Shown here in pieces: positions 8,480-11,204 of a stretch of DNA of 40,299 bases. The notes beneath the pieces are model-generated. The model was not told the origin of the DNA. It saw only the letters and a list, made by a program, of their open reading frames with translations, and did no database searches. Source of the stretch: Escherichia phage UFJF_EcSW4; sequence record PP856269; one strand, given 5' to 3'. Each line of letters begins with the position of its first letter. The stretch's first letter is position 1. A program made the position numbers and the translations under genes.

Positions 8480-8650
8480 ATGACTGACGTAGAAAAGAAG
8501 TACATCGTGGAGCTTGAGGGACGCGTTCAGTCCTTCGAGGTTCCGTTGTACGCAAAGTCTCTTGAAGAGGCTACCCTGAAGTCCCAAGAGTATGAGGACG
8601 CTGGTTTTGTGGTCGGACGGATTCGTCCTGAGACTAAACTATCACTGTAG
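8480..8650 (+). CDS. 2: gp2-like inhibitor of host RNA polymerase
   Basis: 56 aa from the internal ATG with SD ggaagga; [14 protein letters not shown]...[10 protein letters not shown] matches T7 gp2 (SFEVPIYAETLDEA...AGFEVTRVRP). The track ORF starts at 8402. Confidence 0.8.
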
Positions 8651-8656
8651 GACAGA
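8634..8656 (+). promoter_or_regulatory. Phage RNAP promoter variant (CACTGTAGG; phi2.5-position)
   Basis: CTAAACTATCACTGTAGGACAG with one A-to-G change in the conserved core; overlaps the last codons and TAG stop of gp2. Confidence 0.55.
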
Positions 8657-8695: not shown

Positions 8696-9391
8696 ATGGC
8701 TAAAGAGCAACTGAAGACTTTCACCACTCCGGTAGCTGGTATCGTTGAGCCTTACGCATGGCTGAACAAAGCAGACACCAAGTTTAACGAGCGTGGTGAG
8801 CATAAGGTTAACCTGACATTCGACCTGAGCAACCCGAAGGTCCGTAAGATGATTGATGTCTTACAGAAGATTCACGACGATGCGTATGCGAAAGCACTCG
8901 CAGACCACGAGAAGAACCCACCTCAGGTTCAGCGTGGCAAGAAGCCTATTGAACCACGAGAAGGCGACATGCCGTGGATTGAGAATGGTGACGGTACTGT
9001 TACCATGAAGTTTAAATGCTTCGCGTCTTACCTGAAGGATGGTAAGTCTGAGCCTATCATATTACGGTTCTACGACACCGATGCTAAGTTAATCCGTGAC
9101 GTCCCGAATATTGGCGCTGGCTCAAAGCTGAAGGTCAAGTTTAAAGTCCTGCCGTTTAAGTGGAACGCTGCGACTGGTGCAAGCGTTAAGCTCCAACTTG
9201 AGTCCTGCCTTCTGGTAGAACTGAAGGAGTGGAAAGGTGATGGTGCTGGTGGCGATGGTGGCTGGGGTGACGATGAAGACCTCGGTACTGGCTACAAAGC
9301 GTCAACCGATGGTGACTTCGGGTCTGATGACTTCGGTGACGATGGTTCCGAAGGTGGTGACGATGATTCCGAAGGCGATTACAACTTCTAA
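8696..9391 (+). CDS. 2.5: Single-stranded DNA-binding protein
   Basis: 231 aa; GDMPWIENGDGTVTMKFKC, GAGSKLKVKFKVLPFKWNAATGASVKLQLES and the acidic C-terminal tail ending in F match T7 gp2.5. Confidence 0.95.
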   Translation: MAKEQLKTFTTPVAGIVEPYAWLNKADTKFNERGEHKVNLTFDLSNPKVRKMIDVLQKIHDDAYAKALADHEKNPPQVQRGKKPIEPREGDMPWIENGDGTVTMKFKCFASYLKDGKSEPIILRFYDTDAKLIRDVPNIGAGSKLKVKFKVLPFKWNAATGASVKLQLESCLLVELKEWKGDGAGGDGGWGDDEDLGTGYKASTDGDFGSDDFGDDGSEGGDDDSEGDYNF

Positions 9392-9840
9392 TGGCTACAG
9401 TGAAAAGCCTTAAGCAGCGACTCATGGTTTCGGGTGACTGCTGGCTTTTTACAGGCTGCGTTAACAACAAGGGCTACGGTCAGATTAGGCATAATGGGAA
9501 AACCATGCTTGCACATCGCGTAGCCTACGAGCTGATTACAGGTGAGGAACCTAACGGTGTTCTACTACACACTTGTGACACTCCGCTATGTTGTAACCCT
9601 GAGCATATGACTGTAGGAACCCAACGGGACAACCTTCAGGACATGCGTAACAAGGGGCGCGGTGTAAACCCTCCTCATGTTCCGGGAGAGAAGTGTGGTA
9701 TGTCTAAACTTACCAACACTAAAGTCAAGGAAATTAGGTCTTCCAGCCTTACCCAGCGACAGCTCGCCACAATCTACGGAGTGTCTCAGCCGACAATAGG
9801 TAAGATACTAAGGAGAGAAACATGGCGACACGTAATATAA
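9391..9840 (+). CDS. HNH homing-endonuclease-like protein with C-terminal helix-turn-helix (gene 2.8 position)
   Basis: VNNKGYGQIRHNGKTMLAHRVAYE...HTCDTPLCCNPEHMTVGTQRDN is an HNH_3-type motif; C-terminal LTQRQLATIYGVSQPTIGKILRRETWRHV is HTH-like; start overlaps the gp2.5 stop (TAATG). Confidence 0.8.
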   Translation: MATVKSLKQRLMVSGDCWLFTGCVNNKGYGQIRHNGKTMLAHRVAYELITGEEPNGVLLHTCDTPLCCNPEHMTVGTQRDNLQDMRNKGRGVNPPHVPGEKCGMSKLTNTKVKEIRSSSLTQRQLATIYGVSQPTIGKILRRETWRHVI

Positions 9841-10277
9841 GCAGGGGTCACTCGATAGGAATATACCGTTCCGGCCTTGAGGCCAAGAACCAAGAGTGGC
9901 TAGAGAAGAACGGAGTTAAGGCTGAGTACGAAATGTATAACATTAAGTACACAATACCTGAGTCACTCCATAGTTATTGTCCAGACTTTGTTCTTCCAAA
10001 TGGAATCATCGTGGAGACCAAGGGAATCTTCGCAGTCGAAGACCGTAAGAAGCACCTTCTGGTACGAGAACAGCACCCAGAGTTAGACATCCGGTTCGTG
10101 TTCTCAAGTTCACGCTCCAAGTTATACAAAGGGTCTCCGACCACGTATGGCGCATGGTGCGAAAAGAACGGCTTTAAGTATGCCGATAAGTTCATCCCGG
10201 TTGAGTGGCTGCGAGAGGCGACTGTACGTCTGCCTTCAGGTATCCTCATCCCCAAGAAGAAAGGAGTTAAGTTATGA
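9822..10277 (+). CDS. 3: Endonuclease I (Holliday junction resolvase)
   Basis: YRSGLEAKN...PDFVLPNGIIVETKG...DRKKHLLVREQHPELDIRFVFSSSRSKLYKGSPTTYG matches T7 gp3. Confidence 0.95.
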   Translation: MATRNISRGHSIGIYRSGLEAKNQEWLEKNGVKAEYEMYNIKYTIPESLHSYCPDFVLPNGIIVETKGIFAVEDRKKHLLVREQHPELDIRFVFSSSRSKLYKGSPTTYGAWCEKNGFKYADKFIPVEWLREATVRLPSGILIPKKKGVKL

Positions 10278-10498
10278 CTCAAGAAGTTAAGGTCGTTCGT
10301 AAGCGTCTGACCATTGATAAAATCCCGGTAGGCTATGCGTTTATCGTACACGGTAAGCCGGGTGAAGTGTACGTGAAGATTAGTAACTCTCACGTCTTCA
10401 ACCATAAGTTGCTCCAGATGCACACCACGGATGCTAACCGCTTCCAACGTCATCTGAACCTCGTAGCTGTAGAGCTGGTGGTGTACGATGGTGAGTAA
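10274..10498 (+). CDS. Hypothetical protein, 74 aa, between endonuclease I and the amidase
   Basis: ATG overlaps the gp3 stop (ATGA) and has an SD (aaaggag); T7 has no gene here. Confidence 0.5.
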   Translation: MTQEVKVVRKRLTIDKIPVGYAFIVHGKPGEVYVKISNSHVFNHKLLQMHTTDANRFQRHLNLVAVELVVYDGE

Positions 10499-10946
10499 GG
10501 TTCAGTTCAACCCACGGTCCCGCACTGACGCTATCTTCGTTCACTGTTCGGCTACAAAGCCAGATATGGACATCGGGGTAGAGACCATCCGTATGTGGCA
10601 CAAGCAGCAAGGCTGGCTGGACGTAGGCTACCACTTTATAATCAAGCGCGATGGTACTGTGGAAGAGGGTCGCCAGGTCAATGTCGTAGGGTCCCACGTT
10701 AAGGACTGGAACTCACTGTCTGTAGGCGTCTGCCTTGTAGGTGGAGTTGACGCTAAGGGCAAGTTTGAAGCTAACTTCACTCCAGCCCAGATGAACTCCC
10801 TGCGCAACAAGCTGGCTGACCTGAAAGTCCTGTATCCTCAGGCAGAAATCAAAGCACACCATGACGTAGCACCTAAGGCGTGTCCAAGTTTTGACTTGCA
10901 ACGCTGGCTGTCTACCAACGAACTGGTCACTTCCGACCGTGGTTAA
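10488..10946 (+). CDS. 3.5: N-acetylmuramoyl-L-alanine amidase (T7 lysozyme family)
   Basis: TDAIFVHCSATKP, WLDVGYHFIIKRDGTVEEGR, HHDVAPKACPSFDL and the C-terminal NELVTSDRG match T7 gp3.5. Confidence 0.95.
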   Translation: MVSKVQFNPRSRTDAIFVHCSATKPDMDIGVETIRMWHKQQGWLDVGYHFIIKRDGTVEEGRQVNVVGSHVKDWNSLSVGVCLVGGVDAKGKFEANFTPAQMNSLRNKLADLKVLYPQAEIKAHHDVAPKACPSFDLQRWLSTNELVTSDRG

Positions 10947-10970
10947 TAAACTCTAAGGGAGAATAGCTCA

Positions 10971-11186
10971 ATGATTAAACTTATCGAATTTCTTGGTCGT
11001 CTGGTGGTGCGTGGCTATCGTCGTGCTGCGGTTCTGGAACGAAAGGTAGAAAAGAAGACTGCTGACGGTGCGGCTGATGCTGCTGCTCTGGCTGACAAGC
11101 TGACCATCGCGTCACTGGAAGCTGGCATGAAGGCACGTCAGGCTGACACCAAGGCTGACCAGTTGTCTCAGTTCTTCAAAGACTAA
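10971..11186 (+). CDS. Hypothetical protein, 71 aa
   Basis: ORF with SD (aagggagaatagctca ATG); its stop TAA lies inside the following promoter. Confidence 0.5.
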   Translation: MIKLIEFLGRLVVRGYRRAAVLERKVEKKTADGAADAAALADKLTIASLEAGMKARQADTKADQLSQFFKD

Positions 11187-11204
11187 ACTATCACCTTAGG
11201 GATG
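11182..11204 (+). promoter_or_regulatory. Phage RNAP promoter variant (CACCTTAGG; gene 4 promoter position)
   Basis: ACTAAACTATCACCTTAGGGATG; two mismatches in the -4/-3 region, so probably weaker. Confidence 0.45.

Follow-up and report, generated by a model that had tools for sequence, protein, structure and literature searches.

The window, that is the whole 40,299-nucleotide stretch of DNA analysed here (Escherichia phage UFJF_EcSW4, record PP856269), comes from a T7-like, K1F-like phage of the genus Kayfunavirus. Its region 9822–10946 shares 97.5% identity with Escherichia phage HC13, and 92–94% with many Kayfunavirus phages of E. coli, Salmonella Typhi and Citrobacter. In this region a small open reading frame (ORF), gene 3.2, lies between gene 3, encoding endonuclease I, and gene 3.5, encoding an amidase (Table 1). 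The product of gene 3.2 is a basic protein of 74 residues, with a mass of ~8.5 kDa and a pI of 9.45. Its ATG (10274–10276) sits within the tetranucleotide ATGA, the remainder of which forms the TGA stop codon of gene 3 (10275–10277). At the other end, the TAA stop codon (10496–10498) lies beyond the ATG of gene 3.5 at 10488, so that the two genes share 11 nucleotides. The original prediction, made from the sequence before any search, had described a 74-residue ORF with a Shine–Dalgarno sequence, an ATGA at its start and an 11-nucleotide overlap at its end, and these coordinates were confirmed exactly. Its further statement that T7 has no gene in this position was borne out: in T7, genes 3 (10257–10706) and 3.5 (10706–11161) abut at position 10706, in contrast to the window. 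The arrangement of start and stop codons suggests that translation of gene 3.2 could be coupled both to that of gene 3 upstream and to that of gene 3.5 downstream.

Table 1. Features of the gene 3.2 locus, and phage promoters in the window
Feature	Position	Strand	Basis or remark
Gene 3, endonuclease I, upstream neighbour	9822–10277	+	Pfam Phage_endo_I, E 4.2e-74
Shine–Dalgarno sequence AAGGAG of gene 3.2	10261–10266	+	7 nt 5' of the ATG, within the 3' end of gene 3
Gene 3.2, core-only short form	10274–10498	+	ORF; phrog_15211; dN/dS; AF2
ATGA start/stop overlap of gene 3.2 with gene 3	10274–10277	+	Sequence
Most conserved stretch, residues 33–57, YVKISNSHVFNHKLLQMHTTDANRF	10370–10444	+	Invariant alignment columns
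Overlap (11 nt) of gene 3.2 end and gene 3.5 start	10488–10498	+	Gene 3.5 in the +1 frame relative to gene 3.2
Gene 3.5, N-acetylmuramoyl-L-alanine amidase, downstream neighbour	10488–10946	+	Pfam Amidase_2, E 2.4e-15
HNH_3 homing endonuclease ORF, 149 aa, HTH tail	9391–9840	+	HNH_3, E 5.6e-9
Phage RNA polymerase promoter, phi2.5-like	8633–8652	+	1 mismatch to consensus from annotated EcoDS1 promoters
Next phage promoter downstream	11182–11201	+	Consensus match
Promoter consensus matches	2730, 5808, 7537, 8633, 11182, 18415, 21236, 22232, 27015, 34291, 39410	+	

The consensus of Kayfunavirus phage RNA polymerase promoters, CCTAAACTATCACYKTAGGR, is matched 11 times in the window, always on the plus strand and where no match would be expected by chance, and these matches together provide a promoter map of the genome. 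Two of them bracket the locus, and between 8653 and 11181 there is no match to a promoter or terminator. Gene 3.2 can therefore be assigned to the middle (class II, DNA-metabolism) unit of the genome, and to judge from the sequence the phi2.5-like promoter probably drives a transcription unit comprising 2.5–HNH–3–3.2–3.5–3.7. The last of these, likewise small and uncharacterised, is represented by a 71-residue gene 3.7 homologue 3' of the amidase (10971–11186, plus strand), whose match to DUF5471 is weak, at an E value of 5e-4 that falls short of the gathering score. The suggestion that the gene 3.2 interval is instead an RNA element, an internal promoter or a terminator was rejected, as it yielded no Rfam match at E values up to 1 and no phage-promoter match.

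An 'extra' gene at this point in a T7-like genome is usually a freestanding HNH homing endonuclease. Gene 3.2 is not of this kind, since its product has no HNH match in Pfam whilst the nearby HNH gene is readily detected. That gene lies between genes 2.5 and 3, in the same slot as T7 gene 2.8; its start overlaps the stop codon of gene 2.5 in an ATGA and its last 19 nucleotides overlap gene 3. Most close relatives align with the 9822–10946 query only from position 35–43 onwards, so they probably lack this HNH gene and have a different 5' end to gene 3. In Salmonella phage PRF-SP4 (L032), a 149-residue HNH endonuclease (1103–1552) is inserted exactly at the 3.2/3.5 junction, where it re-uses the 11-nucleotide overlap and begins MVSE, compared with MVSK for the amidase. 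The region from gene 2.5 to gene 3.5 seems to be a hot spot for the insertion of homing endonucleases.

Gene 3.2 is a genuine protein-coding gene

The length of an ORF of this size proves nothing, because dozens of similar-sized chance ORFs exist in the window. Comparison with relatives is more telling. Of the possible frames, that of gene 3.2 is the only one which is always open (33 of 33 related loci). A 159-residue antisense ORF covering the end of gene 3 and most of gene 3.2 (9974–10453, minus strand) is open in only 12 of the 33 and can be dismissed as a chance ORF. The median dN/dS of gene 3.2 is 0.12 over 310 pairs, as calculated by the pairwise Nei–Gojobori method on 66 codons with the gene 3.5 overlap left out. 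Within the short-form clade, to which it belongs, the window differs from loci L009 and L010 by 2 nonsynonymous and 19–21 synonymous changes. This short form falls into two subclades, with 81% protein identity, a dS of ~0.9 and omega values of 0.09–0.16. ORF 10274–10498 is thus shown to be a genuine gene, the Kayfunavirus accessory gene 3.2, as had been proposed at the outset from its overlaps and Shine–Dalgarno sequence.

The setting of the gene is conserved along with its product. Of the 28 loci examined, 27 have the context AGAAAGGAG(T/C)TAAG ahead of the start codon; only a Providencia locus (L004) does not. The 4-nucleotide ATGA overlap with gene 3 is kept in every member examined, including K1F, EcoDS1, Providencia phage PSTRCR_120 and loci L028, L029 and L030. 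The 11-nucleotide overlap at the end recurs wherever the next gene directly follows (K1F, EcoDS1, L028, L029), with the inserted HNH gene taking part in PRF-SP4; it is absent in PSTRCR_120, where another gene separates 3.2 from 3.5. Even in the most divergent members (L028, L029, L030 and PSTRCR_120), in which the core of the protein is only ~35–65% identical to that of the window, gene 3.2 is found between genes matching Phage_endo_I and Amidase_2, and its position between endonuclease I and amidase is the same in every locus examined.

Searches with tblastn recovered the protein from 220 phage records, whilst a genus-level RNA polymerase gene marker gave 219 matches (at least 80% coverage), so that gene 3.2 is essentially universal in Kayfunavirus. 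The distribution among relatives, which the original prediction had left to be checked, is thus that of a conserved gene occupying a fixed place in ~220 phage genomes. Beyond these, only 14 clusters matched gp3.2 when 1.84 billion cluster representatives were searched exhaustively with HMMER, and a word-seeded profile search of 5.8 billion proteins gave 292 matches; among the named matches listed, the best 120 of the 292, none had a cellular source. In IMG/VR the family was present on 23 contigs, and the same 23 were returned when the search was seeded with the divergent Providencia-type members. From the narrowness of these results it can be concluded that the family does not extend beyond Kayfunavirus and a few of its neighbours in the Studiervirinae. 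Two of the matching public records, 'Acinetobacter phage vB_Aba_01KA' and 'Enterococcus phage EFA-1', are Kayfunavirus-like genomes whose host labels are implausible.

It follows that no similarity is recognised, as originally reported, only when the sequence is read without search tools: the ORF is the annotated gp3.2 of K1F, EcoDS1 and Dev2. The 74-residue form corresponds to phrog_15211 (E 1.5e-51, residues 1–74 of 74) and is shared with Cronobacter phage Dev2 and Citrobacter phage SH4. The 157-residue form corresponds to phrog_16385 (matched by the window protein with E 7e-34, at profile positions 88–157), to which gp3.2 of K1F (157 residues) and EcoDS1 (163 residues) belong; these homologues are annotated at the same position and have the same ATGA and 11-nucleotide overlaps and the same invariant motif. 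The window protein is 77–100% identical to annotated gp3.2 proteins over the 70-residue core and fully identical in Escherichia phages vB_EcoP_FFK3, HC13 and MirsaeidiM_Esher2. All records label gp3.2 hypothetical, and full-text literature searches found no functional study; a paper on Citrobacter SH phages lists the 74-residue form as matching 'gp3.2 [Cronobacter phage Dev2]' (PMC4925675). The gene is therefore already known, as an uncharacterised genus-specific ORF annotated since the K1F genome.

Three annotations which seemed to indicate otherwise proved misleading. The label 'RNA polymerase inhibitor' beneath the match in phage YZ1 belongs to the amidase gene, YZ1 leaving the ORF itself unannotated. 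An apparent second site for the core beside the primase (SHAK7854) and a 'nonfunctional' note in ESh23 each stem from misplaced annotation in an UNVERIFIED record, the gene being in its normal place in both.

A constrained core and variable N-terminal modules

The C-terminal ~70 residues of gp3.2 are conserved across the family, and everything N-terminal to this core is variable. The invariant residues are G20, F23, Y33, S37, N38, S39, H40, F42, N43, Q48, M49, H50, T52, R56 and F57, which are kept down to 35–42% overall identity (alignments A2, A3 and A5). The window protein has all the invariant columns of the core motif, namely G..F, Y, SNSH.FN, QMHTT and RF. Residues 33–57 are the most conserved stretch and a candidate binding surface; all of these invariant residues except G20 and F23 fall within it, where they make up a patch of largely polar character (SNSH-x-FN, QMHTT, RF).

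An AF2 model based on 88 aligned sequences, including the divergent branch, has six beta-strands, with a pLDDT of 77 and a pTM of 0.61. An alignment of this depth was needed, as 8 sequences gave a pLDDT of 38. Residues 11–60 score 84–92, with blocks over residues 31–50 reaching 91–92, whilst the C-terminal strand and the N-terminus are of low confidence (51–58). The core is tentatively predicted to be a six-stranded SH3-like beta-barrel. The modelled topology, with five to six short strands in a barrel, may be that of the SH3-like small beta-barrels, and ~50–60 residues can be superposed at 2.2–3 Å on FeoA, the C-terminal domain of DtxR/IdeR, domain I of EF-P/eIF5A, ribosomal protein L2 and Tudor domains. 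Profile searches did not add to this. The 74-residue protein had no Pfam match at E values up to 10, SH3-like families (FeoA, SH3b-type, KOW, Tudor) included, and the long forms of gp3.2 gave only sub-threshold noise; there was no match in NCBIfam, none at E values up to 10 in PADLOC-DB, which covers known anti-phage defence proteins, and no relative in the PDB, where the best match had an E value of 1.2. The profile and structure searches recommended with the original prediction thus succeeded as far as PHROG, and returned no relatives from Pfam, NCBIfam, PADLOC or the PDB.

Members of the family range from 74 to 227 residues. The short form, of 74–76 residues with nothing N-terminal to the core, accounts by census for roughly 100–110 of the 220 records; in an evenly sampled tblastn list, a similar share of the alignments is full-length and begins at residue 1. 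The remaining proteins carry N-terminal modules, which are of the K1F type (56 phage records), the 'VGxxY' type (27 records), the PRF-SP4 type (21), the CR8 type (4) or the P0010 type (2); several singletons and Providencia types also occur. Two metagenomic proteins, P0013 and P0122 (226 and 227 residues), have two modules in tandem, the K1F type being followed by a 'VGEEYRIHPD' type, a linker and the core. At least 8 module types have no detectable relationship to each other or to the core, the best hhalign comparison reaching 28% probability over 15 columns. The same result lends no support to the idea that the long forms contain an internal repeat, in which N-terminal modules such as 'VGTRYRF..EDHSVIV' would be diverged copies of 'VGYAFIV..SNSHVFN' of the core. 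Each of the module types searched (K1F, VGxxY, PRF-SP4, CR8 and P0010) was found only at the gene 3.2 locus.

Modules and core differ in character. In the long forms a Pro-rich linker, KPQVLPASSVPPV, joins the two; the modules are acidic (pI 4.2–5.5) compared with the basic core (pI ~9.5, or 7.4 in the Providencia type). Across six genomes the K1F-type module exceeds the core 8-fold in dN, with omega values of 0.16–0.5 (0.84 for one near-identical pair) against 0.02–0.12 for the core. The DNA of the variable cassette is flanked on one side by the conserved end of gene 3 and ATGAC, and on the other by the core. Where modules are partially deleted (proteins of 87, 103 and 107 residues), the core is always kept in frame. 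In one unusual protein, P0008 (157 residues, from a 39.7-kb Logan contig), back-translation by hand shows the N-terminal ~60 residues to be a K1F-type module shifted into the +1 frame (IYLRLVATGGLKVLSLRNVRKTL...); the normal frame resumes at GAWVLKENLEEIVED, and the core that follows is intact. A pair of compensating indels could account for this, as could errors of assembly.

In many relatives gp3.2 reaches 134–227 residues, whereas the 74-residue protein of the window consists of the core alone. Its ORF begins 4 residues before the core, and, as a member of the short subtype, it has neither the extra ~75-residue N-terminal module nor the Pro-rich linker of K1F and EcoDS1. Gene fission was considered as an explanation, with the missing module encoded elsewhere in the window, but tblastn with 16 N-terminal modules found nothing there below an E value of 0.04.

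Possible roles of gp3.2

In about half of the genus the core is stably maintained on its own, and the basic activity of the protein is therefore presumably located there. It is inferred that gp3.2 is a middle-expressed accessory protein, the core of which binds a conserved host or phage partner. In the mechanism envisaged, the core would serve for binding, its invariant patch docking onto this partner, most likely a host protein or nucleoprotein complex to be neutralised or redirected during the DNA-metabolism phase, whilst the variable modules would supply or adjust a second interaction specific to the host. A host target appears the most likely, with a probability of about 0.4, by analogy with T7. 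The small T7 class II proteins gp2, gp5.5, gp5.7 and gp5.9 act on host targets; like these and gp4.5, gp3.2 is small, non-structural, lineage-restricted and encoded in the middle region, the likeness being one of functional analogy, and like the genes for T7 class II host-interference proteins its gene is tightly packed or coupled with those of DNA metabolism. Gene 3.2 is probably dispensable on laboratory hosts.

Other binding partners have to be weighed against a host target. The barrel may bind DNA or RNA, making gp3.2 an accessory protein in recombination, replication or transcript handling. KOW, Tudor-like, L2 and EF-P/eIF5A barrels all bind DNA or RNA, a basic SH3-like barrel would suit such a role as well as it suits a host target, and the gene lies in a DNA-metabolism neighbourhood; even so, this seems on the whole unlikely. 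A phage partner is somewhat less likely again. Produced in a fixed ratio with gp3 and gp3.5, gp3.2 might bind either of these or the phage RNA polymerase, for example by restraining endonuclease I or by modulating the interaction of the lysozyme with the polymerase, gp3.5 being a regulator of phage RNA polymerase. The strict synteny, with the gene 3 start overlap present even in the most divergent members and the 11-nucleotide overlap wherever gene 3.5 directly follows, would fit such a role, as would the direct abutment of genes 3 and 3.5 in T7 itself and the strength of core conservation, which equals that expected of a protein facing a conserved phage partner. However, T7, T3 and most Studiervirinae use the same gp3 and gp3.5 without gp3.2. 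Rigid synteny is in any case general in T7-like genomes and is no proof of interaction, genes 3.2 and 3.5 are separated by another gene in PRF-SP4 and in PSTRCR_120, and the variability of the N-terminal modules suggests a variable partner, which is to say the host.

Two further explanations are much harder to sustain. The predicted SH3-like module adjoins an amidase, and endolysins carry SH3b wall-binding domains; by analogy, gp3.2 might serve as a cell-wall-binding or endolysin-helper domain in trans, possibly fused to the amidase by frameshifting within the 11-nucleotide overlap. This is improbable, as gp3.2 has neither an SH3b signature nor a signal sequence, and a fusion is itself unlikely because the overlap contains no shifty sequence. 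At least as improbable is that the ORF of the window is a decaying remnant, left after an N-terminal deletion and kept only for the ribosome-binding site and start region of gene 3.5. Longer forms of the protein do exist, partial deletions of the N-terminal module (87–107 residues) are seen, and the start of gene 3.5 lies in the 3' end of the ORF. Against this, the short form occurs in roughly 100 or more of the 220 genomes and keeps its own Shine–Dalgarno sequence and ATG, the purifying selection described above holds both between its subclades and among close pairs, and it is the protein that is constrained, over the whole of the 66 codons tested, from which the gene 3.5 overlap was excluded. 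A decaying remnant is thus largely refuted.

It is attractive, though distinctly speculative, to regard gp3.2 as a two-part intracellular effector of host takeover or counter-defence, with the invariant SH3-like core as an 'anchor' and the acidic N-terminal modules as swappable 'warheads'. The anchor would dock on a conserved host or phage complex, and unrelated, fast-evolving warheads, of which a protein may have none, one or two, would be swapped by recombination between the conserved flanks. Module swapping is known in the tail fibres of T7-like phages; gp3.2, were it such an effector, would be an intracellular counterpart, and the form found in the window its minimal active version.

Since annotation of the ORF in this genus goes back to the K1F genome, nothing is gained from the gene call itself; the gain lies in seeing that the window encodes a modular protein in its minimal form, reduced to the core. 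This short form offers a minimal 8.5-kDa construct with which to find the partner. The anatomy may prove useful: gp3.2 is an orphan protein found throughout the genus, with strong constraint on a 70-residue core that bears an invariant polar patch, and with an N-terminal cassette that is hypervariable and exchangeable. Proteins of lytic phages which are built in this way are promising candidates for factors of host-specific interference or counter-defence, and Kayfunaviruses are in wide use as candidate therapeutics against E. coli K1, Salmonella Typhi and Enterobacter.
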